From Candidatus Bathyarchaeota archaeon (GTDB lineage Archaea > Thermoproteota > Bathyarchaeia > TCS64): DNA of 12,592 nucleotides. Location of the stretch: contig JBDRQD010000023.1 of assembly GCA_043826455.1 (NCBI GenBank), forward strand, positions 1-12,592, given 5' to 3'. This document shows, piece by piece, positions 1-12,592 of the stretch. The notes beneath the pieces were generated by a model. It was not told where the DNA came from and did not search any database. It was given only the letters and a program-made list of their open reading frames with translations. Positions within the stretch are counted from its first letter, which is position 1. Every line of letters starts with the position of its first letter. Position numbers and translations under genes: made by a program.

Positions 1-867
1 GTCCGCAACTGCGTAAAGGAGAAGCTCATCGTCTGCATCAACGGGGACTTCGGTAAAAGGTTCGCCGAGGTGGCCAGAAGCAACGGCAGGGAGGTGGTGG
101 AGGTGGTGCCCGAGCTGGGCCACCCGGTGACGCCCGAAATGCTCAAGAAAGCCATTGAGGCCGAGCCCGACGTGGAGGCCGTGGCCATCACCCACAACGA
201 GACCAGCGTGGGCATCATCAACAAGCTCCCCGACCTCACCAAGGTGTGCAAGAGGCATGATAAGCTTGTCTTCGTGGACGCCGTCAGCAGCATGGGGGGC
301 ACAGAGATCAAGACCGACGCGTGGGGCATCGACATCTGCTTCAGCAGCAGCCAGAAGTGCTTCGGCGTCCCCCCCGGCCTGGGCATCGGCTCCGTCAGCG
401 AAGCAGCCCTAGACGTATCAGAGACCATGCCCAACAAGGGCTGGTACTTCGACCTCAAGCTCTGGGAGAAGGACCACAGGGACGGCAAGGGCACCCCCGT
501 CACCAGCGCCATCCCCCAGGTGGCGGGCCTCAACGCAGCCCTCAAGATGATCCAGGGCAAAGGCGGCAAGAGGTGGTACTTCGACCTCTACAGGAAGCGG
601 AACACGGCCATCAGGAAGGGCATCGAGAGGCTGGGCCTCAGCACCTACCCCCAGAAGGGGTACGAGAGCCCCACCGTGAGCTGCATCAACGCCCCGGCGA
701 AGATGGATGGCCCTAGCGTCTACAAGGAGATGAGGGGCAAGGGCTTCGAGCTGGCCCAGGGCTACGGGGCGTTGAAGGACACGACCTTCAGGATCGGCAA
801 CATGGGCTGGATACCCGAGGAGTACATCGACGAGATGCTGGCGGCGCTGGCCCAGGTAGTATCTTAA
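1..867 (+). CDS. PLP-dependent class V aminotransferase (serine-pyruvate/alanine-glyoxylate aminotransferase-like), 5'-truncated by the window edge
   Basis: Frame is open from base 1 (VRNCVKEKLIVCINGDFGKRF...). Class V motifs NGxFGxRF, THNETSVG, VDAVSSMGG, SSSQKCFGVPPG (PLP lysine) and FRIGNMG. The GTG at 70 is internal, not the true start. Confidence 0.92.
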   Translation, partial: VRNCVKEKLIVCINGDFGKRFAEVARSNGREVVEVVPELGHPVTPEMLKKAIEAEPDVEAVAITHNETSVGIINKLPDLTKVCKRHDKLVFVDAVSSMGGTEIKTDAWGIDICFSSSQKCFGVPPGLGIGSVSEAALDVSETMPNKGWYFDLKLWEKDHRDGKGTPVTSAIPQVAGLNAALKMIQGKGGKRWYFDLYRKRNTAIRKGIERLGLSTYPQKGYESPTVSCINAPAKMDGPSVYKEMRGKGFELAQGYGALKDTTFRIGNMGWIPEEYIDEMLAALAQVVS

Positions 868-870
868 CCC

Positions 871-878
871 TTTTTCTT
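871..878 (+). terminator. Possible archaeal oligo-T terminator
   Basis: TTTTTCTT lies 3 nt after the aminotransferase TAA in otherwise GC-rich DNA. Confidence 0.45.
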
Positions 879-916
879 ATCATACCGGGGTAAGCTAAGG
901 CTGCCTCCGTGGCTCA

Positions 917-943
917 ACGCACATCATTTAACTGTGCGTACGC
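917..943. promoter_or_regulatory. Inverted repeat around an AT-rich core upstream of the MFS gene (possible operator/promoter)
   Basis: ACGCACA(917-923)-tcatttaac-TGTGCGT(933-939) is a perfect 7-bp inverted repeat. It overlaps the palindrome GCGTACGC (936-943). Confidence 0.4.
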
Positions 944-977
944 TAAATCACGTTACACCTAGAGGCCGGTGATGCGC

Positions 978-2219
978 ATGGTAGGACTCTCAGCCAGGCT
1001 CAGGGACGAGTTCGGCTTCCTCAGGGGGAACCTGCTGGTGCTCATAACCAGCTACGTCATCTTCGGTTTCACCACGGGCCTCTTCAACCCCTTCAGGAGC
1101 CTATACATACGGGAGCTGGGGGCCTCGCCACTTGTCCTGGGCCTCATGAGCTCCCTTGGCTCGGTGATCCTGGCCATCATCAGGGTCCCGGGGGCGTACA
1201 TCGCCGACAGGTACGGCCGCAGGAACATCATTGTCTTGTTCACATTCGGCGCGGCCCTCAGCTACGGGTTCTATGTCATCGCCCCCGACTGGAGGCTCAT
1301 CCTAGTGGCGGTGGTGGTATCCAACCTCAGTCACATCTACCAGCCGGCCTTGGAGGCCATCGAGGCCGACTCCATGCCCCCAGAGAAGCGTGGCCTGGGC
1401 TACATGCTCGTCTGGTGGCTGCCCGGTGCCCCCGGCCTCTTCGCGCCCGCCATCTCCGGGTACATGGTGGAGAGGTACGGTCTGGTCCCCGGTATGAGGA
1501 TGGTGTACGTGGTGGTGTTCGTCAGCGCGCTGACGATAGCCCTGATCAGGTGGCGTTACCTGAAGGAAACCATGGCGGAGAGCGCAGCCCTAGGGCTCAG
1601 GGAGCTGAGCTCCGCCTTCAGGGAGGCGGCGGGTTCCATAAGGGAGGCGTGGTTGGAGATGGGCAGGGAGATATGGTTCCTGGCGGCGGTCCTGCTGCTC
1701 GTCAGCTTCGAGAACCCCCTGTACAACCTATACTACGCGCTCTATGCGGTGGACGTCGTCGGCGTCTCGGCCATGGAATGGGGGATGGTGTCCATAATCG
1801 GTACGGCGGCCATGAGCCTGGTGGGAATCCCGGCTGGGAAGCTCATCGACAGGATCGGGCGGAGGAAGTCCATGCTCCTGGCCTACGCGTTCTCGCTGCC
1901 AGCCCTCATAGCCTTCACAGTGATAAGGGGATTCACCCAGATGGTGGTAGTGAACATCTCCTTCCTGATATGCAACTCGTTGCTGTTCCCCTCAATAATG
2001 GCGCTCCAGGCGGACCTGGTGCCCCAGGAGAGGCGGGGAAGGATAATGGGCCTCATGGGGACCCTAAGGAGCCTGGCCATGGTCCCGGCGGGCATCATAT
2101 TCGGGCTCCTGTACGAGGTGAACCGGGCCTACCCCTACTATGTAGGCGTCCTAGTCGAGGTGGCCATCATCCTCGTGATACTATTCTTCATCAAGGAGCC
2201 TGAGATGAGGGAAAGGTGA
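978..2219 (+). CDS. Major facilitator superfamily transporter
   Basis: About 12 hydrophobic segments. MFS motif A occurs twice (GAYIADRYGRR; GKLIDRIGRRK), plus the loop motifs PPEKRG and PQERRG. Start chosen at ATG 978 behind GGTGA (968-972); 969 and 972 are alternatives. Confidence 0.93.
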   Translation: MVGLSARLRDEFGFLRGNLLVLITSYVIFGFTTGLFNPFRSLYIRELGASPLVLGLMSSLGSVILAIIRVPGAYIADRYGRRNIIVLFTFGAALSYGFYVIAPDWRLILVAVVVSNLSHIYQPALEAIEADSMPPEKRGLGYMLVWWLPGAPGLFAPAISGYMVERYGLVPGMRMVYVVVFVSALTIALIRWRYLKETMAESAALGLRELSSAFREAAGSIREAWLEMGREIWFLAAVLLLVSFENPLYNLYYALYAVDVVGVSAMEWGMVSIIGTAAMSLVGIPAGKLIDRIGRRKSMLLAYAFSLPALIAFTVIRGFTQMVVVNISFLICNSLLFPSIMALQADLVPQERRGRIMGLMGTLRSLAMVPAGIIFGLLYEVNRAYPYYVGVLVEVAIILVILFFIKEPEMRER

Positions 2220-2222
2220 GGG

Positions 2223-2777
2223 TCACCTTTTCACGGACTCGTCCCCCAGGGCCCGGGCCCTCCTCATGAGAGCTTCGTCGGACCTAGCCGAGCCTGGAGA
2301 AGATGTGCCTGGCGCCCTGATGGTGGCTAGGCGCCTCATCCCCAGGTAGGATGCGATGGACTCCAGCATCTCCACTGTGGTGTCCGAGTAGCTGGAGCCG
2401 CCCCCCGAGGGCACCACAAGAACCACCTTCTTGCCTCTGAACAGGGCCTTGTCCACGCCGTACCACCGGTCTATGAAGGCCTTCGTCTGAGCGGTGGGCC
2501 CCCACCAGTAGACGGGTGTACCTAGGACCCAGACGCTGCTCAGCCTCATCTTCTCCAAGACTCCGTTGAAGTCGTCCTTCTTGGGGCATGGGCTTCCGCC
2601 GCGGCAAGCGTCACAGGCGTCGCAGGGGCGGATGTCTAAATCGCTGAAGCGCACCTTCTCGGTGGGGGCTCCAGCCTCCGATGCGCCTCTCAGCACCTCG
2701 TCCACAAGGGTATCCGTGTTGCCTCCCCGGCGAGGACTGCCCACGAGGCCTAATACATGTACCTGTTTCTTGCTCAT
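2223..2777 (-). CDS. Iron-sulfur flavoprotein (Isf)-like / NADPH-dependent FMN reductase family flavodoxin
   Basis: GSPRRGGNT FMN loop, compact CxxCxxC-x5-C cluster (CDACDACRGGSPC), GTPVYWW and KAFIDR. ATGA overlap with the upstream LLM gene. Confidence 0.9.
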   Translation of the reverse strand: MSKKQVHVLGLVGSPRRGGNTDTLVDEVLRGASEAGAPTEKVRFSDLDIRPCDACDACRGGSPCPKKDDFNGVLEKMRLSSVWVLGTPVYWWGPTAQTKAFIDRWYGVDKALFRGKKVVLVVPSGGGSSYSDTTVEMLESIASYLGMRRLATIRAPGTSSPGSARSDEALMRRARALGDESVKR

Positions 2778-3736
2778 GGCTTCACCGCCTCCACGTCCGC
2801 CACGGCGGGGACAACCTCAAGGCCTATCCTCTCAATGGGCTTGACTTTGTGAGCGTCAGGCATGTTGAATACCACGTGGTCTACCCCCAGCCCGGCCATC
2901 TCCCTGCAGAGGGCCGCGATCTGGCTTGTGGTCATGGCGTCTGGGCCAACCTTCACAGTAGCCAGCACGGTAACCTCAATCTCATCCAGGCTCCTGCCCA
3001 GGGCGTCACAGAGGCGCCTCAGCTTCCTCATCTTCCGGGTTATCCTCTCCACCCTGTTAGCGTACCAGTCGTGGATGACCGGCGGGTAGCCCTCGACGGG
3101 GCCGCCTATGTGGAAGTTACACATGTCGCAGTGCCGGGCTATGAGCCGGAGCAGCCTGCTCTCGCCGTCTCCGCCTACCAGGATCGGAGGGTGAGGTTTA
3201 GTCAGGGGAGGGGGGCTGAGGATGGGGGCCTCCAGGTGGTAGTGCTTACCCTTGAAGGGCTCCCTGCTGCCGCTCCACATGTGTCTAGCTATCATGAGGG
3301 CCTCCTCTAGCCTACTGAAACGTTCGCCTACGGTCTCCGGCCATGGGACACCCAGGCCCCTGGCCTCGTACTTGTGCCAGCCGGCGCCCATGCCCAGGAT
3401 GGCGCGGCCCGCCGATAGAATATCCAAGCTGGTCACCTGCTTCACCAAGACACCTGGGTGCCTGTACACGTTTCCGGTGACCATGGCACCTAGCTTCACC
3501 CGTCGGGTGACCCCGGCCATGTAACTGAGGGTAGCGTAGGCCTCCATGGTGGGGGCGTCTACCTTGACTGCTTCCGGGGGCCCGAAGCCGCGTCCCAGCT
3601 GGTAGAAGTGATCCATGATCCAGAGGCTGCTGAAGCCGGTCTGGTCGGCGGTCTCTGTCATCTCTCTGACCTTTTGGCCTATGTCGCCTGGGCTTCCAGG
3701 CCAGTGGAAGTGGTACAGCTGTAATCCTATCTTCAT
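2774..3736 (-). CDS. Luciferase-like (LLM) class, probably F420-dependent, oxidoreductase
   Basis: GFSSLWIMDHFYQ, VTGNVYRHPGVLVK, LDILSAGRAILGMGAGW and PHPPILVGGDGE. Start MKIGLQ at 3736 follows a GGTGA SD (3742-3746). Confidence 0.9.
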   Translation of the reverse strand: MKIGLQLYHFHWPGSPGDIGQKVREMTETADQTGFSSLWIMDHFYQLGRGFGPPEAVKVDAPTMEAYATLSYMAGVTRRVKLGAMVTGNVYRHPGVLVKQVTSLDILSAGRAILGMGAGWHKYEARGLGVPWPETVGERFSRLEEALMIARHMWSGSREPFKGKHYHLEAPILSPPPLTKPHPPILVGGDGESRLLRLIARHCDMCNFHIGGPVEGYPPVIHDWYANRVERITRKMRKLRRLCDALGRSLDEIEVTVLATVKVGPDAMTTSQIAALCREMAGLGVDHVVFNMPDAHKVKPIERIGLEVVPAVADVEAVKP

Positions 3737-3745
3737 ATGCTTCAC

Positions 3746-4945
3746 CTAGTAGAATGTGGGCTGTCTTTCGAAGACCCTGTTGGGTGCCTGCATGTTCACC
3801 GTCTCCTCCGGGGGAAGTATCTCCTCCAGCGTGTAGTCTCTGCTGCCCAGGCCCAGCTTCTCTCCGTAGCCGCAGACCAGGTAGGGGTCCTTCCAGGCCC
3901 CCCAGAGCCGTTGGAAGGGGTGGAGTGGAGCCTCAGGGTCCAGGTTGGTCTTTTTGATGTAGGGGGGTATCATCTGGGGTATGAGGCCGGCGCGGGCCAC
4001 TAGGTCCAGGGCGGCCTGCTCCACGGCCACTATGTCCCTGCCGGCTACTATGCCTATGTCGGGGACCACGGGCGGCGAGATGAGGCCGGGGCAGTCGCAC
4101 TGGGGGGTTATGTCCAGTAGGAAGCCCAGGTGGAACACCTTGTCGCCGCTGAAGGTCTCCAGTATCTTCCCTGTGGCCACTGCCATGAGTTCCTGGAAGG
4201 CGGCGAAGTTGGCCTGGGTGAGACTGAGGGCTCCTACATCCCTGTCAGCCTCTATGCACTCCAGGCAGTTTCCGTTCATGCACTCGTACCAGAGGTTGGT
4301 GAGGGTCCTCTTCTCGGGGTCGTACCTGAGGGCGCCGCAGGGGCAAGCCTTTTCCAGCTTCTCGGCGTGGCCCGAGGTGAGCTTCTCGGGGCTGTACCAG
4401 GGTACGCTGTCCTCGACCCCGTGGATCTTGTGCCACCTGTCCTCTCCGCAGTAGCCGCCCAGGGCTAGGTTCTTGAAGGCGCCGCCGTAGCCGCAGGTCT
4501 GGTGGCCCTTGACGTGGACCAGGTTGATGAGGGCGTCGGCGTCGTGGAGGGCGCCGCCCATGTTCATCTTGTCCACTGTGCGGTACCCTATCATGGTCTC
4601 GTAGCGGTACCCGTCCTTGACCCCGGACACGGGGATGATGGGGCAGCCGCAGGTCTCCTGGGTGTAGCCCCTGTCCACGGCGTTGTAGACGGCCGTGGGG
4701 TTGTCGGTGACGAAAGGATATGCGCCCACGTCCTTGAGGCGCTTGACCAGGCGTCGGACGAAGAAGACGGGGACGGTCTGGAACCCGTCCCGGAAGCCCA
4801 GGTGCATCTTGACGGCCACCTTGTCCCCCTTGGATATGGTGCTTAGGTCGAGGCGGGTCATCATCTCCTCGTACTTGGCCGCCAGGGAAGCGAAGTGGGC
4901 GGACTGGCCGTGGACTATGGAGCCGTAGTAGACTGTGGACCTCAC
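3746..4945 (-). CDS. DUF362-type Fe-S protein with internal ferredoxin-like segment
   Basis: GDKVAVKMHLG, HVKGH..CGYGGAFKNLALG, DITPQCDC and DIGIVAGRDIVAVEQAALD. GTG start at 4945 overlaps the AKR TGA (GTGA) and has GGAGG 8 nt upstream. The ORF-track extension to 5185 lies inside the AKR gene. Confidence 0.85.
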   Translation of the reverse strand: MRSTVYYGSIVHGQSAHFASLAAKYEEMMTRLDLSTISKGDKVAVKMHLGFRDGFQTVPVFFVRRLVKRLKDVGAYPFVTDNPTAVYNAVDRGYTQETCGCPIIPVSGVKDGYRYETMIGYRTVDKMNMGGALHDADALINLVHVKGHQTCGYGGAFKNLALGGYCGEDRWHKIHGVEDSVPWYSPEKLTSGHAEKLEKACPCGALRYDPEKRTLTNLWYECMNGNCLECIEADRDVGALSLTQANFAAFQELMAVATGKILETFSGDKVFHLGFLLDITPQCDCPGLISPPVVPDIGIVAGRDIVAVEQAALDLVARAGLIPQMIPPYIKKTNLDPEAPLHPFQRLWGAWKDPYLVCGYGEKLGLGSRDYTLEEILPPEETVNMQAPNRVFERQPTFY

Positions 4946-5967
4946 TTCTCTGCCTCCGCGATCTGTTTGTAGTAGGCGTGGTTCTCCTGGATGAGCTCGC
5001 GTATGGGGAGGCTGTAGGGGCACCGCTCCTCGCACTCGCCGCACTGGACACAGCTGGTGGCGGTCTCCGCGGATTTGCCGAAGGCCTTTATGACCTTGTC
5101 TCTGGGCCACAGCCTGAATAGGTTCTTCATGTAGGTGAGGAGCCATATCTCGACGCCGTGGGGGCAGGGCATGCAGTACATGCACTGGCGGCAGAACCGG
5201 TTGCCCAGCTGGTCGCGGAGGGCGTCCATGGCGGCCCAGTCATCCTTGGTTAGGATGACGCCCGCCTCCGCCAAGTCCGCTATCTGGTCCACCTCCTCCA
5301 GGTGCTCGACGCCCGGGTCGGGGACCACGCCGGGGTGGCTGAGGGAGTAGCCGAGGGCTAGCCTGGCGTCCTGGATGTTGCCCCCCGCGAAGGGCTTCAT
5401 GCCGATGAAGCCGACGTTGTGCTTGCGGGCGAGGGGGACCAGCTCGGGGGCCGCCTCCCGGGCTATGAAGTTGAAGGGGAACTGGACGGTCTCGAATAGG
5501 CCGGACTCCACGCCCTTTATAGCGGTCTCCAGGTTGTGGGTGCTGAAGCCCAGGTGGAGTATCTTGCCCTCCTCCTTGGCCTGGTGGGCGGCCTCCAGGG
5601 GGCCGCCGGGGGCGGTGACGGCCTGGAGGGCCTGGGGGTCCCGGATGTTGTGGAACTGCCAGAGGTCTATGTGGTCGGTGTTGAGGCGTTTTAGGCTCTG
5701 GTCTATGTGCTGCTGGGCGGTGGCCTTGTCGCGCCACGTGCCCTTGGTGGCTAGGAGCACCTGGTCTCTGCGTCCCTGGATGGCCTTGCCTATGATGATC
5801 TCGCTGTCGCCGTAGGCTATGCTGGTGTCTATGAGATTGATGCCGCGGTCCAGGGCCCTGTTTATTACCTTCTTGGCTTCCTCCAGGGTTGGCCGCTGGA
5901 TGGGTATGCCTCCCATGGCGACGCGGCTGACCTTGAGGCCGGTTCGTCCTAGGGTTACCTTCTTCAT
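4942..5967 (-). CDS. Aldo/keto reductase with C-terminal 4Fe-4S dicluster
   Basis: LGRTGLKVS, IDTSIAYGDSE (catalytic Asp/Tyr), LATK, SLKRLNTDHIDLWQFH, GFSTH and MKPFAGG. C-terminal CRQCMYCMPCP and CVQCGECEERCP. Start MKKVTLG at 5967 behind AGGAG. Confidence 0.93.
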   Translation of the reverse strand: MKKVTLGRTGLKVSRVAMGGIPIQRPTLEEAKKVINRALDRGINLIDTSIAYGDSEIIIGKAIQGRRDQVLLATKGTWRDKATAQQHIDQSLKRLNTDHIDLWQFHNIRDPQALQAVTAPGGPLEAAHQAKEEGKILHLGFSTHNLETAIKGVESGLFETVQFPFNFIAREAAPELVPLARKHNVGFIGMKPFAGGNIQDARLALGYSLSHPGVVPDPGVEHLEEVDQIADLAEAGVILTKDDWAAMDALRDQLGNRFCRQCMYCMPCPHGVEIWLLTYMKNLFRLWPRDKVIKAFGKSAETATSCVQCGECEERCPYSLPIRELIQENHAYYKQIAEAEK

Positions 5968-6040
5968 GGGTGTTCTTCTCCTGGGGGCGGTGATAAACGG
6001 TTCTGAGGGTGGAGCCTCAATTTTATGCACCCGTGGATAG

Positions 6041-6490
6041 TTATTTGGCTGCGGCTGCCAGGTCACGGCCCAGCTGTCTGCACTTCTCCAGCACTTTCTC
6101 GGTGGGGCGGCCGTAGGACTCGACGGGCTCGCCTATGATGGGGCCTAGGCGTTTGAATAGGCTGACCAGAGGCTGTTTGACTTTGCCTCCTCCTCCGTGG
6201 CTGTAGAAGAGGGCTATGGGTTTGTTGAAGAGGCCCTGGGTGCCCCGCTGTTCCTCTATGTAGTGGTCGTCGAGGAACATCTTGATGCCTCCGGCGGGGT
6301 AGCTAAAGTAGTCTGGGGTGCCGATGGCTACGCATGTGTATCTGGGGTAGGTTGAGCAGTCCAGTCGGTCGTGGTTGGTGTTGAGGGTGACCACCTGGTG
6401 GCCGGCTTCTTTGAGGCTTTCTGCCACTGCCTGGGCCATGGCTTCTGTGTTGCCGTGTTCCTGGCTGTGGTATATGACCAGTGCTTTCAT
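6041..6490 (-). CDS. Short-chain flavodoxin-domain protein
   Basis: IYHSQEHGNTEAMAQAVA FMN loop, IGTPDYF, SHGGGG and C-terminal CRQLGRDLA. Confidence 0.88.
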   Translation of the reverse strand: MKALVIYHSQEHGNTEAMAQAVAESLKEAGHQVVTLNTNHDRLDCSTYPRYTCVAIGTPDYFSYPAGGIKMFLDDHYIEEQRGTQGLFNKPIALFYSHGGGGKVKQPLVSLFKRLGPIIGEPVESYGRPTEKVLEKCRQLGRDLAAAAK

Positions 6491-6609
6491 GGTTGATCCT
6501 TGTTTGGGGGGGTATTTATTCTTTTGGATTCCATACGATTATTTGGTTTTTATAACGTTTGTTAATGCCCTCGTTAATCTTTTTAGCCTGTGGCGCGGAA
6601 CTGTACACC

Positions 6610-6894
6610 ATGGAGGAGCACCTGAACCGGCTGCTGGGGCCCAGCATTTTCCTGCTTATTCTGGACATGATGCTGGGGGACCCGTGCCAGTGGATGAACC
6701 TCCGGGAGATCGCCAGGCGCATCGATAAGAACCCGGGGAGCGTGTCGCCGGTGATGCCTGGGCTGGTGGAGCGGGGCCTGGTGGAGGACTGTAAGGTGGG
6801 GAAGGTGTCGGTGGTCTACAGGCTGAGGACAGATGATCCTCGGGTGCAGGCGCTCATGAGGCTTAAGGAGAGCCTTAGGGGCTCTGAGGGTTAG
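6610..6894 (+). CDS. Small winged helix-turn-helix transcriptional regulator (ArsR/MarR-like)
   Basis: NLREIARRIDKNPGSVSPVMPGLVERGLVE..KVGKVSVVYRL has an HTH plus wing pattern. ATG 6610 lies ~25 nt after a TTTTTA box. Divergent from the flavodoxin gene. Confidence 0.8.
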   Translation: MEEHLNRLLGPSIFLLILDMMLGDPCQWMNLREIARRIDKNPGSVSPVMPGLVERGLVEDCKVGKVSVVYRLRTDDPRVQALMRLKESLRGSEG

Positions 6895-7559
6895 AGTAGC
6901 TGTATCAGGGTTATGGCTTTTGTTGGGCAGGCGGTGACGCAGAGGCCGCAGCCGAAGCAGAGGTCCTTGTTGTAGTGAAGCTTGCCGTCGGCGAGGTTTC
7001 TGGCGTCGAAGTGGCATCTGTCTACGCAGGCGCCGCAGGAGGTACAGGCTGAGGCGTCGGTGGCTGTGGTGGCGATGGACTTGAGGAGGTGGACGTCCTT
7101 TCCGAGCTTGAGGCTGACGCCGAGGGTGCCGCAGCTGCAGCTGCAGCAGTTGCAGATGAAGTTGACGCCCTGAGGGTTGGGGGTGTCGGTTCTGATGTAG
7201 GCCATGGGGACCAGGCCGGCCCTGTGGGCCTCCTCGACTATGTTGAGGGCTTCCTCGACGGAAGCCTCGCGGGCGGAGCCTCGGTCTATGAACTTATTGG
7301 CGGCGTCGTTGAGGGTGAGGCAGTTGTCGACGGGGTGATCGCAGTTTTTGCGTTTGGTGCGGCAGCTGCAGGGCATGACGGCTATCTTCTGGGCTCGGGT
7401 GAGGTAGCGTTTGACGCTGTCGGTGTTGAGTACGGTGTTTTTGAGCTGGATCTCCTGGTATATGGGGAGGGCTATGCCGGCGGCTATGTGCTGTGAGTCG
7501 GCTATGGCGTTGGTTTGGTCGGTTTCGTCGATGAATGGGTGGGTGGGTTGTTTGGCCAT
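6891..7559 (-). CDS. Cys-rich 4Fe-4S binding protein of unknown function
   Basis: PCSCR..C...C, EEAL..VEEAHRAGLV and ICNCCSCSC, followed by a ferredoxin dicluster (CTSCGACVDRC; CFGCGLCVTACP). Confidence 0.88.
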   Translation of the reverse strand: MAKQPTHPFIDETDQTNAIADSQHIAAGIALPIYQEIQLKNTVLNTDSVKRYLTRAQKIAVMPCSCRTKRKNCDHPVDNCLTLNDAANKFIDRGSAREASVEEALNIVEEAHRAGLVPMAYIRTDTPNPQGVNFICNCCSCSCGTLGVSLKLGKDVHLLKSIATTATDASACTSCGACVDRCHFDARNLADGKLHYNKDLCFGCGLCVTACPTKAITLIQLL

Positions 7560-7582
7560 GGTATCAGACGCAGTGAGGTGCG

Positions 7583-7596
7583 ATATAGGTTTTATC
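7583..7596 (-). promoter_or_regulatory. BRE/TATA-like promoter of the 4Fe-4S gene
   Basis: Minus strand GATAAAACCTATAT ~24 nt upstream of ATG 7559, consistent with a leaderless archaeal transcript. Confidence 0.5.
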
Positions 7597-7598
7597 AG

Positions 7599-7880
7599 CT
7601 AGTGTAGCTGGAATGATTGTTCGGGTGTTCGTGAAGCATTTGACCGCTTTCTATTCGCTTCACGTATTGCTAGTCTCTCTGCCTCTTTCCTCATCTCGGT
7701 GAAGGGTTCGGGTATGCTGAGTGAGCCCTTGAGGTCGTCCAGTGATTTGTGGGGTAGGGGTATGATCTTTAGGTGGTCGCCCGCGTTGAGGACGAGGACT
7801 TTCTTGGTGATCCCGGTCCTTTCTCGGTCCTTCTTTGGTAATGTGATCCTGCCTTTGGCGTCTATCTCGCAGATGCTCAT
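7599..7880 (-). CDS. AbrB/MazE/SpoVT-family DNA-binding protein (VapB-like antitoxin, no adjacent toxin)
   Basis: EIDAKGRITLPKKDRERTGI...LKIIP swapped-hairpin signature, followed by an LDDLKGSL...EAERLA tail typical of archaeal VapB-type antitoxins. Confidence 0.85.
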   Translation of the reverse strand: MSICEIDAKGRITLPKKDRERTGITKKVLVLNAGDHLKIIPLPHKSLDDLKGSLSIPEPFTEMRKEAERLAIREANRKRSNASRTPEQSFQLH

Positions 7881-7904
7881 CGAGTGGTTGGATGTTCCGA
7901 GGCG

Positions 7905-7919
7905 GATAAATTTTGTTTA
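7905..7919 (-). promoter_or_regulatory. BRE/TATA-like promoter of the AbrB gene
   Basis: Minus strand TAAACAAAATTTATC ~25 nt upstream of ATG 7880. Confidence 0.5.
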
Positions 7920-7982
7920 TTGCGGGGTGGGCTGGTTCTGGGTGACTGGTATGTTTTTTCGGGAGTGTGCCCGTTTTTTTGT

Positions 7983-8255
7983 TTATCGTCTGATGTTGAA
8001 GTCTCTGTACTCGCCTGTGGCGGCTGAGTTCTCTACGTTGATGCGGGTGACGTGGGACATGGTGGGGCCGTGGCTGCACCACGCTACCAGTTTTTCTATC
8101 TGGATCGGGTCGCCTTCGGCTACTATCTCCACTGAGCCGTCTGGCTGGTTGCGTGTGTAGCCTTTGAGGCCGTACTGGGTGGCTTTGCGTTTGGCGTTGG
8201 CTCGGTAGCCGACGCCTTGGACGCGGCCGTGGATGGTGATGGTGGCTCGGATCAT
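7983..8255 (-). CDS. acyP: Acylphosphatase (90 aa)
   Basis: The last 90 aa of the 385-aa track ORF: GRVQGVGYR (catalytic Arg), GYTRNQPDGSVEIVAEG (catalytic Asn) and WCSHGP. ATG 8255 overlaps the hypD stop (ATGA). Confidence 0.93.
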   Translation of the reverse strand: MIRATITIHGRVQGVGYRANAKRKATQYGLKGYTRNQPDGSVEIVAEGDPIQIEKLVAWCSHGPTMSHVTRINVENSAATGEYRDFNIRR

Positions 8256-9340
8256 GGGGGTTGTACTCCGTAGCGGGCTGAGATGTAGCAGCTTCCTTCG
8301 TGGCTGACCATGCAGGGGCCTACGGGGGTTTCGGGTGTGCACTGGGTGTTGTATAGGGGGCATTGGTGGGGGTAGATGATGGCTGTGAGGACGTCTCCGC
8401 AGCGGCAGCCGTGGGGCATCTCGTAGGTTTCCTCTTCTTGGATGTTGAAGCGGGTTTTGGCGTCGTGGTCGGCGTACTCGTCGCGGATGGCTAGGCCGCT
8501 GAGGGGTATGGTGCCTATGCCTCTCCAGGGGGCGTCCACTGGCTGGAAGACCTGGTCTAGGAGTCGTAGGGCGCGGGGTGTTCCTTCTGGTTTCACGGCT
8601 CGTTTGTAGCTGTTCTCTATTTCGCCTCGTCCTTCCTGTATTTGTTTGAGGATCATGGCGACGCTGAAGAGGATGTCGAGGGGCTCGAAGCCTGCGATGA
8701 CCTGGGGGACGTGGTAGCGGTCGGATACGCCTCGGTATCCTTGTTCGCCTATGATGGTTGATACGTGGCCTGGGTCTATGAAGCCGTCTACGTGGGTGAG
8801 GCCTTGGGCGAGGAGGGCGTTCATGGCTGGGGGGATGAGGAGGTGGGCGCTGTAGGCGGTGAAGTTGGGTGGGGGGCCGGCTGCTAGTTCGGATGCTGTG
8901 GTGGGTGCTGTGGTTTCGAAGCCTACTGCGAAGTGGATGACTTGTTTGGTGGTTTTCTGGGCTATCTTGACGGCGTCGTGGATGCTGTAGACTATGCGTA
9001 TGTCGTGGCCTCTGGCTTTGGCGTCTTGGAGGCTGGTGTCTTGGGCTGGTACTCGGATCATGTCGCCGTAGGTGGTTACTGTGTGGCCTTGTTCGGCTAG
9101 TTTTATGGCTGTGGTGATCTTGTTGGGGGGTACTGTGCATACTGGGCAGCCTGGGCCCATGAGGACTTCGACGTTGGGTGGTAGCATGGTTCGTATGCCG
9201 TATTTGGTGATGGTGTCTTCGTGGGTGCCGCAGACGTGGACGATCCTGTAGGTGCGGTCCGGGTCTGCTAGCTGCGCTATGTATTTGGTTAGCTTGTTTG
9301 CTGTCTGGTTGTCGCGGAAGGCGTCCACGAAGCTGTACAT
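8252..9340 (-). CDS. hypD: [NiFe]-hydrogenase maturation protein HypD
   Basis: HypD motifs VCGTHE, GPGCPVC, GFETTAP, DPGHVS and GFEPLD, with a C-terminal CRCGDV...CPLY..CTP..PVGPCMVSHEGSC. Start taken at ATG 9340 (MYSFVDAFRD). Confidence 0.97.
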   Translation of the reverse strand: MYSFVDAFRDNQTANKLTKYIAQLADPDRTYRIVHVCGTHEDTITKYGIRTMLPPNVEVLMGPGCPVCTVPPNKITTAIKLAEQGHTVTTYGDMIRVPAQDTSLQDAKARGHDIRIVYSIHDAVKIAQKTTKQVIHFAVGFETTAPTTASELAAGPPPNFTAYSAHLLIPPAMNALLAQGLTHVDGFIDPGHVSTIIGEQGYRGVSDRYHVPQVIAGFEPLDILFSVAMILKQIQEGRGEIENSYKRAVKPEGTPRALRLLDQVFQPVDAPWRGIGTIPLSGLAIRDEYADHDAKTRFNIQEEETYEMPHGCRCGDVLTAIIYPHQCPLYNTQCTPETPVGPCMVSHEGSCYISARYGVQPP

Positions 9341-9396
9341 GATAGACACCACAGAGGCATAGAATAAAAACAAACCCATGAGAAGGCTAGAGATGA

Positions 9397-9415
9397 GTAA
9401 ACCTTTTTATATAAA
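9397..9415 (+). promoter_or_regulatory. BRE/TATA promoter for the small methyltransferase; palindromic TATA could also serve hypD
   Basis: GTAAACCTTTTTATATAAA. TTTATATAAA (9406-9415) is a perfect palindrome between divergent genes. Confidence 0.55.
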
Positions 9416-9485
9416 TATAATTGTAACTTAAATCTAAAAAGACGCATTAATTCGATTAAAATATCTCTTTATCTATTACTAAAGC

Positions 9486-10133
9486 ATGGCACGCTATCCT
9501 ATTTCTCATAATGGTTCTAAGAAATTGGGGGAATATTTCAAAGAGATCATAGAACTCCATGTTCCTCCATCTAAAGAAACTAGAATACTTGACCCTACAT
9601 GTGGAAAAAAACATCTCTGGACAAACTTCTATGCACCAAACCTCAAGGGCGATACTCCAATCAATAATTATGGTGAAGTTATTTTCTCGGACATTATTGA
9701 CTATGGTCAGGATATTGTGTCAGATATTAGGAACCTAGAATTTAATGAACCATTCAATTGTATAATATACGATCCACCGTATCTCTTTGGTTATAAAGGG
9801 TCTAATGATCCACGGCGAAAAGATTATGGTGATTATCTTCAGAATTACGAAGATCTTGTTTGGTTCATGGATTTTGCTAATAAAAGATTTCCAGAATGGT
9901 TAACCAGTGACGGAAAAATCATTGTAAAATGTTCAGATCAATACCAGACTAAGGAAAGAAAATTTTATTGTCATCATAATACTTGGATTAATAAGCTATC
10001 TAATTTTGATATCATTGATCTCATGATATTCACGCACCACAGGATATCTCCAACGGCTTTCCAAGTCAAGAACAGGCCATGCTCCGTGATAATGCACACA
10101 TACTTCTTAGTGTTTCAGAAACGCGTCCAATGA
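9486..10133 (+). CDS. Small SAM-dependent DNA amino-methyltransferase (m6A or m4C), specificity unknown
   Basis: Motif I ILDPTCG (9585-9605) precedes motif IV IIYDPPY (DPPY 9771-9782), then L..DGKIIVKCSD and a terminal HTYFLVFQK. At 215 aa there is little room for a target-recognition domain. Confidence 0.8.
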   Translation: MARYPISHNGSKKLGEYFKEIIELHVPPSKETRILDPTCGKKHLWTNFYAPNLKGDTPINNYGEVIFSDIIDYGQDIVSDIRNLEFNEPFNCIIYDPPYLFGYKGSNDPRRKDYGDYLQNYEDLVWFMDFANKRFPEWLTSDGKIIVKCSDQYQTKERKFYCHHNTWINKLSNFDIIDLMIFTHHRISPTAFQVKNRPCSVIMHTYFLVFQKRVQ

Positions 10134-10955
10134 GAATTTATTGATATTAGTGACCAGAATTTCATCAACAGGCCCACGCTTATCAGCTACAGAGTTGATA
10201 GCTCGATTCGCTTTAACTATATCAACACTAAAACTATCAACCTCACGATACTTATCCACAAGCGTCTCAACATAGGAGTTGCTCAAAACAAAGAGCACTC
10301 CTTTATCATCTAAACTTACACAAGTATCACGAAGCCGAATCTGGTCATCAAAACTGAACCCATCTTTTGAGTATGATGTGAAATCAGCGGTATCACTCAC
10401 AGGTAAATACGGGGGATCAAAGTAGCAGAGATCCCCTTCCTTAGAATAATCGATTACATAGGTGAAATCTGTGCAAAGTACCTCGATATTCTTCAAGATC
10501 TGACTTGCTTCAGATATTCTCTTCTCGTCAACTATAGTGGGGTTCTTGTAGCGTCCAAAGGGCACATTGAATTTTCCCTTCGAGTTCACTCTGTAAAGCC
10601 CATTGAAAGCTGTCTTATTTAGATAGAGAAGAAGCGAGGCATCTTCAATGTCTGAGAGCCCAGGTTCGTTGAAGCGTTCCCTGAGCCGATAGAACTCATC
10701 TTTATCATGGCGGTAGGTCTTGGCTAGCTCTATGAGTTCATCGGGATTATCTCTCACTACCCTGTAGAAGCTCATTAGCCGAGGGTTTACATCGTTGATA
10801 GATCCTTGCTTAGGTTTTATCTTGAAGAAGACGGCCCCTCCCCCAAAAAAGGGCTCATGAAAGGCTCTCTGTTTGTAGTCTCTGGGAAATTGAGCTAGGA
10901 TGTTGGGTATTAATTGTCTTTTTCCTCCAGCCCATTTCAGGATCGGATCCGCCAT
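10107..10955 (-). CDS. dam: Dam/DpnM-family (alpha class, D12) DNA adenine methyltransferase, probably GATC-specific
   Basis: LKWAGGK, EPFFGGGAVFF, INDVN, YLNKTAFNGLYRVNSKGKFNVPFGRY (GATC-recognition region of Dam/DpnM), YFDPPY and LSNS. GGAGA SD 5 nt before the ATG. Confidence 0.95.
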   Translation of the reverse strand: MADPILKWAGGKRQLIPNILAQFPRDYKQRAFHEPFFGGGAVFFKIKPKQGSINDVNPRLMSFYRVVRDNPDELIELAKTYRHDKDEFYRLRERFNEPGLSDIEDASLLLYLNKTAFNGLYRVNSKGKFNVPFGRYKNPTIVDEKRISEASQILKNIEVLCTDFTYVIDYSKEGDLCYFDPPYLPVSDTADFTSYSKDGFSFDDQIRLRDTCVSLDDKGVLFVLSNSYVETLVDKYREVDSFSVDIVKANRAINSVADKRGPVDEILVTNINKFSLDAFLKH

Positions 10956-10983
10956 ATTATCTCCATATCATCCTTGTCATCCC

Positions 10984-12075
10984 TTAAAAATCCTCAAGGC
11001 GTTTAGCCTTCTGTCCAAATGATACTAGCTTGATATTTGCCTTGAACTCTCGTGGGATATAACTTTCAGAATTGCTCTTAAACGATGGAGCGTAGAGGTA
11101 AAGAGCGATTCTGTCTAGCTCGTCTGGTGCAATTTTTTGAAGCCATTTACCGTATCGGACTAATTGCTCAACCTCAGCTTTACCTGAACCTCGGTATTTT
11201 AACTCGATGATGATGTTCGGGATGGTTCCATCTCTTATTTTATCATCTGAATAGTAGGTTATGTCTGCTCTATCCATCTGTGAGGGTTTGAAAGGTGATA
11301 TTGGTATTTGTCGGCAAAGTGTCCAATCCTCTTTTGGGTTCAGAATTGGTGGTAGTAGGCCTGGGTTCGCTAAGACGGAGGTTTCTAAGTGAGACTCAGT
11401 GGTAGCTTCTTCCACCTTTGATATTCCATATTCGGGTTTGAATGGAATGAGGTCTCCTTCTAATTGTATCGTCTCTTTTGTTCCTTTGAAGATATTATCT
11501 CTAGATTTCTCCATGAGCCTTAGCAGAATATCAACTTCGCCGGGTGTCAAGGTGCAGAAACTCATGTTTTGGATAGCGTTTGATGGTAAAGGATATGGGT
11601 ATGAGCCTAGCTCGAAGTATAGGTCATCTGAGCTTATTGTCTGGCCTCTAAGCGAAAGTCTATCTGAGAACCTTATGAGATAAGGTTGACAGCGCTCTTT
11701 TCTGTCATCTTGGACTTGTCGTAAGAAGATGCCAGGGGTTTCTGTAGGGTCGTATATCGTTCTCTTTGACTCATCCCAGACAAGGGGTGCATTGGCTTTT
11801 TTTCCTATTGGGAAGAATGACCCATTGAGGTAATAGGCTCCGTAATGTTTTGAGCCTTCTATTTGTCCCCCATAGATAATTTTACGTTTCATGAAGAAGA
11901 AGACATGTGTGCCTTCTCTGCCACAGGAGTAGTCTGCTAAGGCAGGATAATGATTGCTTCTAGGGCCGATTACTCCATTATTGTATGGCATGAGGAAGCT
12001 GTAGATTCCTCTGTCAAGATAAAGGTTCAAGGTATCAATATCGTATAACGTAATGAAAAATCCAGAGTTAAGCAT
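10984..12075 (-). CDS. Putative restriction endonuclease: N-terminal PUA-like (EVE/DCD-type) domain plus C-terminal PD-(D/E)xK nuclease (NucS/Mrr-like)
   Basis: C-terminus ESHLE...RADI...IIIELK...EVEQLVRY..WL fits E-D-ExK-QxxxY. N-terminus FFIT..TLNLYLDRGIYS...EGTHVFFF..KIIYG...W...PYLIRF...SFCTLTPGEVDIL resembles the EVE/DCD pattern (by eye). Confidence 0.72.
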   Translation of the reverse strand: MLNSGFFITLYDIDTLNLYLDRGIYSFLMPYNNGVIGPRSNHYPALADYSCGREGTHVFFFMKRKIIYGGQIEGSKHYGAYYLNGSFFPIGKKANAPLVWDESKRTIYDPTETPGIFLRQVQDDRKERCQPYLIRFSDRLSLRGQTISSDDLYFELGSYPYPLPSNAIQNMSFCTLTPGEVDILLRLMEKSRDNIFKGTKETIQLEGDLIPFKPEYGISKVEEATTESHLETSVLANPGLLPPILNPKEDWTLCRQIPISPFKPSQMDRADITYYSDDKIRDGTIPNIIIELKYRGSGKAEVEQLVRYGKWLQKIAPDELDRIALYLYAPSFKSNSESYIPREFKANIKLVSFGQKAKRLEDF

Positions 12076-12105
12076 GAAACCCCTAGTAACATTAGGTTTT
12101 TCTGA

Positions 12106-12120
12106 ATATATGAAATTTCA
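12106..12120 (-). promoter_or_regulatory. Possible promoter of the nuclease-dam operon with palindrome over the BRE
   Basis: Minus strand TGAAATTTCATATAT ~30 nt upstream of ATG 12075. TGAAATTTCA (12111-12120) is a perfect palindrome. Confidence 0.4.
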
Positions 12121-12188
12121 GGCTAAATAACATTTACTTAAAATTAAACGCATAGTTAAAAAATTTACTATATGTCTTCTGTTTTAAT

Positions 12189-12210
12189 AATAACCATTTT
12201 ATATATATTA
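12189..12210 (+). promoter_or_regulatory. BRE/TATA-like promoter of the terminal ORF
   Basis: AATAACCATTTTATATATATTA ~30 nt upstream of ATG 12235. Confidence 0.5.
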
Positions 12211-12234
12211 AAAGAAATAAAAATAGATATTATT

Positions 12235-12592
12235 ATGGCGAAATATTTTTCGGGAAAGACATTTTTTAAAGACAGGGGCGAAGAGTTTACCTCAATTCTA
12301 GATATAAAATTTGATAATAACCTATTCATCTATGTTTTTCCTGGTCGAATAACTAAGAATGACATTTGGATAAAGTTCAGAGATTTTAATGTCGCTACAA
12401 CACGAATTCGTACTCCTAGACACATTCATTGGGTTGTAGATTTATTGATTAAAAAAGATAAAGAAAACTCTCTATCTTCCCAGTTTTTATATTCAATGTT
12501 AGATAGATGGAAATCCATTAAACCTCTATCAGATAGGAAATACGATACAGTGCTTGAAAATTTAGTTCTATCTAGGAAAAATAATTTTCTCG
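12235..12592 (+). CDS. Hypothetical protein, 3'-truncated (at least 119 aa), not in the ORF track
   Basis: Hand translation is stop-free to the window end in very AT-rich DNA: MAKYFSGKTFFKDRGEEFTSILDIKFDNNLFIYVFPGRITKNDIWIKFRDFNVATTRIRTPRHIHWVVDLLIKKDKENSLSSQFLYSMLDRWKSIKPLSDRKYDTVLENLVLSRKNNFL. A TATA box sits at the expected distance. Confidence 0.85.
   Translation, partial: MAKYFSGKTFFKDRGEEFTSILDIKFDNNLFIYVFPGRITKNDIWIKFRDFNVATTRIRTPRHIHWVVDLLIKKDKENSLSSQFLYSMLDRWKSIKPLSDRKYDTVLENLVLSRKNNFL

Follow-up and report, generated by a model that had tools for sequence, protein, structure and literature searches.

A predicted reader-fold nuclease in a methylase cassette of a Bathyarchaeota archaeon as a candidate methylation-blocked GATC restriction enzyme

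What does a nuclease with the predicted fold of a modified-base reader do in a cassette of DNA methylases? The question is raised by one end of contig JBDRQD010000023.1 (Candidatus Bathyarchaeota archaeon, assembly GCA_043826455.1), of which we analysed positions 1 to 12,592 of the forward strand; this whole stretch of 12,592 nt is called the window below. PUA-superfamily domains on nucleases are taken to mean "cuts modified DNA", and the nuclease family described here breaks the genomic rule behind that view.

Three open reading frames (ORFs) lie at the contig end: the nuclease (10984..12075, minus strand; 363 aa), with a predicted EVE/YTH (PUA-superfamily) domain and a predicted NucS-type PD-(D/E)xK domain; a DpnM/Dam-family adenine methylase predicted to be GATC-specific (10107..10955, minus strand; 282 aa); and MT2, a minimal amino-methyltransferase (9486..10133, plus strand; 215 aa). 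Their layout agreed with what an earlier note on this DNA had described. The nuclease stop and the Dam ATG are 28 nt apart (10956-10983), the Dam-family gene has its own Shine-Dalgarno signal, a ribosome-binding-like GGAG (10961..10964, minus strand) 5 nt before the ATG, and MT2, with its DPPY motif, converges on it with a 27-nt overlap. The AT-rich island of that note was also evident, as the G+C (GC) content is 0.36-0.43 across the three cassette genes versus 0.58 in hypD.

On balance, we think that the nuclease probably represents a novel restriction-enzyme family that is directed at GATC, is blocked by methylation and takes the slot of DpnII. Under this model, the cassette would be a Type II-like restriction-modification system: the EVE/YTH-fold, NucS-type nuclease would cut incoming DNA at or near unmethylated GATC, while the Dam-family enzyme is predicted to protect the host GATC sites by adenine methylation and MT2 would likely add another mark to GATC, the part played by DpnA in DpnII systems. 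The reader pocket would then check the base for the absence of methylation instead of requiring a mark.

Architecture and distribution of the nuclease

The AlphaFold2 model of the nuclease, built with 114 sequences, had a predicted local distance difference test (pLDDT) score of 93.9. Structure comparison of this model predicted a PUA-like domain in residues 1-195 (11491..12075, minus strand) and, together with conserved residues, a PD-(D/E)xK domain in residues 226-354 (11014..11400, minus strand). The first domain gave VIA Z values of 9.8 to PH1033 (root-mean-square deviation, rmsd, 3.3; 128 aligned), 9.7 to the EVE domain of VcaM4I (rmsd 4.1, 143 aligned) and 9.3 to the YTH domain of YTHDC2 (rmsd 2.6, 120 aligned); these values are modest, and the top nine rows were all of EVE/YTH type. 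For the second domain, the Z value was 8.7 to the catalytic domain of NucS 2vld (rmsd 2.8, 105 aligned). Foldseek and Atlas (EVE and NucS_C clusters) agreed with a reader plus NucS-type architecture, in keeping with the reader-fused PD-(D/E)xK protein proposed from the sequence alone. Residues E227, D271, E291, K293, Q304 and Y308 were kept in all 47 distant relatives, and the PD-(D/E)xK domain also has an SPFKP loop. The protein is thus predicted to join a PUA-like reader domain to a PD-(D/E)xK domain with intact active-site residues. Among the aromatic residues conserved in the PUA-like domain, Y25 and F173 occur in both clades of the family and W100 in the close clade only, and they may form a base pocket; the profile alignment of the nuclease to 26 EVE domains reached a probability of 2.6% at best, too weak to map pocket residues.

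The nuclease had no match above cut-off in Pfam, PADLOC or NCBIfam, as expected from the earlier suggestion that it belongs to no named family; seven distant relatives had no PADLOC match either, and PDB sequence searches with the nuclease returned weak NucS matches only (NucS profile E 0.005). The family is nevertheless widespread, with 490 close relatives in the database search (218 representatives at 50% clustering) and 1237 database matches in a sister clade. The source names displayed for the relatives were "hypothetical". Of the 301 genomes of the host class, 2 had a full-length match, which in one of the two contains a stop. A plasmid search with the window nuclease and a phage search with a sister-clade protein gave no match, and each of three plasmid searches with sister-clade proteins gave the same pair of plasmids. 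As a separate observation, two near-identical nuclease copies (P0094 and P0390) are recorded for one named haloarchaeal-type genome.

Methylase partners and the GATC slot

To describe the context of the family, we found 46 genome loci of the nuclease by peptide patterns and counted neighbours within 3 kb. A DNA methylase was present in 44 of them (Dam in 31, beta/DpnA-like in 19, HPPY-motif in 18), and of the two methylase-free exceptions, one is truncated by the end of its contig (L041) and the other is a fragment carrying two stops (L043). These counts bear out the paradox raised in the earlier note, in that methylases accompany a nuclease with a reader fold. A still more distant relative (L223) adjoins an HPPY-like methylase. 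Single-methylase loci were also found (Dam only in 3, HPPY only in 8 and beta only in 1 of the 46), among the cassettes are a two-gene Dam-nuclease pair (L149) and two further two-gene cassettes (L010, L013), all three with no other cutter, and in L023 and L026 Dam and nuclease form one ORF. Of the 44 methylase-bearing loci, 17, some of them with short flanks, showed no further restriction gene from the families tested within 3 kb; six loci with more than 4 kb on both sides (L005, L006, L014, L024, L026, L035) had no other cutter within 3 kb, and no DpnII was found in their genomes. At the whole-genome level, Dam occurred in 33 and DpnII in 26 of the 46 genomes. Across 65 loci checked, we found no intact nuclease with all methylases broken, and the reverse, a broken nuclease with an intact Dam, in L151. 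The family requires a methylase, but no particular one, and no other nuclease. Because single-methylase cassettes exist, the idea of two methylases serving two logics is not supported.

Several unusual genes were seen at these and related loci. The HPPY methylases of L001, L002, L004, L005, L008, L012 and L035 are about 500 aa long, and in their added C-terminal part the final methylase motifs occur once more, as if a second domain had decayed there. Stand-alone MutH-like nucleases of 200-230 aa lie beside adenine-type methylases in L002, L016, L040 and L213 and are a possible minimal GATC restriction enzyme. In L135 and L014, family members adjoin DISARM-like genes (helicase, DUF1998, PLD; DrmE).

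The sister clade, with 22-25% identity in full-length alignments, has the same catalytic residues. All 12 loci retrieved for it have a GATC-type methylase or restriction neighbour, of Sau3AI type in 9 (L134-L141, L222) and Dam in 3; the Sau3AI-type C5 partners represent about 7 independent loci. L136 and L140 showed no Sau3AI nuclease; full-length comparison of the C5 methylase beside their nuclease with the C5 methylases that adjoin Sau3AI-family nucleases gave 49-69% identity. The C5 partners are 46-69% identical to one another (full length) versus 25-34% (catalytic part) for two other C5 genes of L136. One C5-linked and one Dam-linked member of this clade are 58% identical, and a quick tree placed a C5-linked member in one group with two that are linked to Dam (SH-aLRT 92). 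The term common to the sister-clade partners is the GATC site, not the chemistry of methylation.

The Dam-family protein of the window matched Pfam D12 (E 1e-66) and TIGR00571 (285.6 bits, cut-off 114.85), its best solved relative is DpnM 2dpm (E 6e-70), and its segment NGLYRVNSKGKFNVPFGRY aligns with DpnM and E. coli Dam. In the host genus, 27 of 32 genomes carry Dam, so cutting of methylated GATC by the nuclease is unlikely, as it would be self-lethal if the host Dam is active. The host genome (G000) has a second, host-like Dam gene with a GC content of 0.62 on another contig (C73:5243-6043, L152), and elsewhere (L055:712-2118) a Dam homologue bears a 190-aa C-terminal extension of no Pfam family.

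MT2 has a class-I methyltransferase fold with the motifs DPTCG...DPPY; motif I precedes DPPY, and a separate target domain is not evident. It scored E 0.0013 with Pfam N6_N4_Mtase, below the cut-off, and E 1e-8 with the PADLOC orphan-MTase model, and had 171 database matches. Among 80 metagenome loci of MT2, in a set that has duplicates (62 distinct in 70 rows), the neighbours were DpnII in 37, Dam in 32 and the window nuclease family in 5, and both nucleases together in none; this swap of one nuclease for the other supports the view that the window family fills the DpnII slot. MT2 was also present in 8 of the 301 host-class genomes, with DpnII beside it in 4, a MutH-like nuclease in 1, the window nuclease family in 1 and no cutter seen in 2. 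DpnII, MutH-like nucleases and the window family are three interchangeable cutters beside an MT2 and Dam pair. An unrooted tree of modest support placed the nuclease-linked MT2 copies in two places among the DpnII-linked ones. We rejected MT2 as a dedicated partner of the nuclease, as MT2 occurs in 0 of the 46 nuclease genome loci and usually with DpnII; a special role for the second methylase in this system is likewise not supported.

In five well-flanked loci, MT2 was the only methylase found beside a full-length DpnII. Since DpnII is blocked by N6-methyladenine (6mA), according to the available text of PMC12707154, MT2 likely marks GATC, unless a Dam is encoded elsewhere in those genomes. 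MT2 occupies the place of the second methylase in DpnII-type cassettes, that of DpnA, which is described in the accessible part of PMC3573125 as methylating single-stranded DNA. However, only 32 columns of MT2 aligned with the beta-class set, and it could not be assigned to beta-class DpnA; by weak profile scores, its register is closer to the HPPY family.

Weighing the explanations

GATC would be the target of the nuclease because its partners come from GATC systems whose protein families are unrelated, and methylation would block it because the linkage to methylases is near-obligate. The methylase partners differ in fold class and chemistry and share GATC, and a GATC-directed, methylation-blocked enzyme is the simplest reading and, in our judgement, a rather likely one. 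It would also retain the first of the two options in the earlier note, discrimination between unmethylated and self-methylated sites; the second, in which one methylase protects and the other licenses cutting, is not supported. If correct, it would mean that Pfam, NCBIfam and PADLOC miss a restriction family in which a reader fold works with inverted logic, and many "orphan" Dam or two-methylase loci would become complete systems. No description of an EVE/YTH-NucS nuclease tied to GATC methylases was found in the full-text literature searched, which covers few subscription journals and not REBASE; supplementary tables could list members.

A number of observations weigh against a methylation-blocked GATC enzyme. 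A second GATC nuclease lies within 3 kb in 27 of the 46 loci (DpnII in 24, MutH-like in 3) and also in most C5 loci of the sister clade; plain redundancy of GATC nucleases at this rate is awkward and is the weak point of the reading. Of the 5 loci with MT2 and the nuclease, only 2 extend far enough upstream for DpnII to be excluded. Nor are the loci independent, as 14 of the 57 rows of the quick tree (from which 8 short or broken rows had been dropped) fall into a single clade, mostly of Bacteroidota; related genomes and duplicate contigs raise the counts, yet linkage to methylases is seen in archaea and in several phyla of bacteria. That MT2, the HPPY family and the C5 partners are specific for GATC is presumed from position and family. 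A single family would need to take either N6-methyladenine (m6A) or 5-methylcytosine (m5C) as its blocking mark, or to switch between them, and the nuclease retains reader-type aromatics. The host genome shows only a mild shortage of GATC (0.87), and palindromic hexamers are depleted there in general, so that this value is uninformative. Patterns of decay are noisy, because in L222 the C5 gene is in pieces and the Sau3AI ORF is whole. Finally, a Type II enzyme with a PUA-like specificity domain was not found in our searches, and none is known to us.

An explanation absent from the earlier note, possible in our view but unlikely, is a putative Metis-like sensor. The PUA-like domain would bind a methylated mononucleotide and switch on the PD-(D/E)xK domain, so that DNA is destroyed in an abortive infection. 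The ligand might be N6-methyl-dAMP (m6dAMP) in Dam-linked members and methyl-dCMP in C5/Sau3AI-linked ones, released as a virus degrades the methylated host genome; the methylases might then be the source of the signal rather than a shield, with the gene grafted onto GATC cassettes as a second, abortive line of defence. In the available part of a preprint (bioRxiv 10.1101/2025.11.05.686725), the PUA-like domain of MisA is predicted to bind m6dAMP, MisA is activated by m6dAMP and needs the host Dam, putative type III Metis systems have their own methylase, and methyl-cytosine versions are foreseen. Such a sensor would jointly account for the methylase linkage in 44 of 46 loci, the retained aromatics and the decay of the orphaned gene in L043, and it would explain coexistence with intact DpnII or Sau3AI (27 of 46) better than a methylation-blocked enzyme does. 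On the other hand, any frequent methyl mark would serve it, yet the partners seen are families of GATC systems, including the Sau3AI-type C5 methylases of about 7 independent loci; members that are 58% identical would need different ligands; and the host genus has Dam anyway. It also leaves unexplained why DpnII and the nuclease never occur together beside MT2 (0 of 80). A MisB-like HAD phosphatase motif was present in 0 of 379 neighbouring ORFs by a crude N-terminal pattern, though a DNase effector would amplify its own signal. Were this explanation correct, the family would be the foreseen methylase-carrying form with a nuclease effector, possibly with a methyl-cytosine sensor.

Next comes a modification-dependent, Type IV-like passenger of GATC cassettes, which would act as a back-up against viruses whose hypermodified bases resist DpnII or Sau3AI, with no need of the methylases. 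The fold, nearest to EVE/YTH readers, and the coexistence of the nuclease with intact restriction genes fit this idea, and EVE- and DCD-PD-(D/E)xK fusions have been proposed as Type IV enzymes (available text of PMC7641849). We nevertheless regard it as improbable. The 46 loci hold no intact methylase-free copy, two-gene cassettes occur with no other cutter (L149, L010, L013), and a general reader has no reason to track one four-base site across unrelated systems; the methylase linkage given for such enzymes, moreover, is below 6% (PMC6765204, available part).

The earlier note also raised a two-mark gate, in which GATC would be cut only when it bears a host and a foreign mark, or in which one methylase protects and the other licenses. 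It would cover both the dependence on methylases and the coexistence with DpnII, and the window does have two methylases, but we consider it very improbable, given the cassettes with Dam, HPPY or beta methylases only and given that MT2 is mainly a companion of DpnII, and in five well-flanked loci the only methylase found beside it, which points to a plain protective mark. A NucS/Vsr-like role in mismatch repair was rejected, as the NucS match covers the catalytic domain only and m6A methylation creates no T:G lesions.

Insertion site and comparison with known systems

The three genes lie in a low-GC insertion upstream of hypD (9400..12592, no strand), which runs off the contig end. It is not confined to the source assembly: on a metagenome contig (L047), all three genes recur beside hypD, with DNA 85% identical and a host gene directly after. 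In a genome of the same genus (L192), the site is empty, and hypD adjoins the homologue of the L047 flanking gene with no insert. Since the same place is filled in L047 and empty in L192, the three genes are a recurring unit. On contig C28 of the host genome (48900-50242), a tail of low GC content (0.31), which includes a 250-aa ORF possibly for a membrane protein, adjoins the gene that flanks the insert in L047; it is probably the opposite edge of this island, and the DNA that would join the two is unassembled. Other relatives (L184, L186) have different low-GC DNA at the same position, which suggests that the site upstream of hypD is an insertion hot spot.

Further along the insertion, an ORF that is divergent from the nuclease and open at the contig end (12172-12591, plus strand) has a GC content of 0.28 and no known family. 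Its sole other match in the 301 class genomes adjoins a Dam-MT2-MutH-like cassette (L213:3217-3822); it was not found in L047 and had no usable Atlas match. Elsewhere in the window (7599-8160, minus strand), a small MraZ/AbrB-like gene is followed by another ORF, which we take to resemble a PIN-domain partner in L047, and a probable acylphosphatase lies at about 7983-8255.

With NucS/EndoMS, the nuclease shares the C-terminal catalytic domain (Z 8.7; profile E 0.005), but the match is confined to residues 226-354 and falls short of full length (NCBIfam 13.6 bits, cut-off 216), and the context of NucS is repair whereas that of the window family is restriction cassettes. Metis (MisA-MisB) combines a PUA-like sensor with an effector that depends on Dam methylation, and the window nuclease, with its predicted PUA-like fold, may have a comparable sensor. 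In Metis, however, a calcineurin-like NAD+ diphosphatase or a membrane protein acts as effector, with a HAD phosphatase as partner; in the window family a PD-(D/E)xK domain takes that place, no PF00149 match or membrane effector of the MisC kind was found in the nuclease, and no recurring unexplained neighbour cluster was found around its loci. The modification-dependent nucleases of the PUA superfamily (VcaM4I, EVE-HNH; the predicted EVE/DCD-PD-(D/E)xK proteins) have, like the window nuclease, a reader fold followed by a nuclease domain. They rarely lie near methylases, with one nearby in fewer than 6% of 350 PUA-fused nucleases in the available text of PMC6765204, whereas the window family nearly always does; it has the proposed Type IV architecture of EVE/DCD-PD-(D/E)xK proteins (as set out in the available part of PMC7641849) without the Type IV genomic context. 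Sau3AI/DpnIII-type systems, with a C5 methylase, are not represented in the window, and they pair a MutH-like nuclease with a different methylase chemistry.

The closest likeness is to DpnII/MboI-type systems (DpnM, DpnA, DpnII). The window likewise has a DpnM-like Dam gene, a second amino-methylase and one nuclease, and MT2 normally flanks true DpnII genes. The window nuclease, by contrast, is not of the DpnII family and has no Pfam match, and G000 (97.7% complete) has no PF04556 match; the second methylase, 215 aa long with motif I before DPPY, is unlike beta-class DpnA and is an undescribed occupant of its slot. Because nuclease and second methylase both fall outside the corresponding families, the cassette is not a member of the DpnII type, yet from its context, with cleavage of GATC presumably blocked by methylation, it would work most like one.

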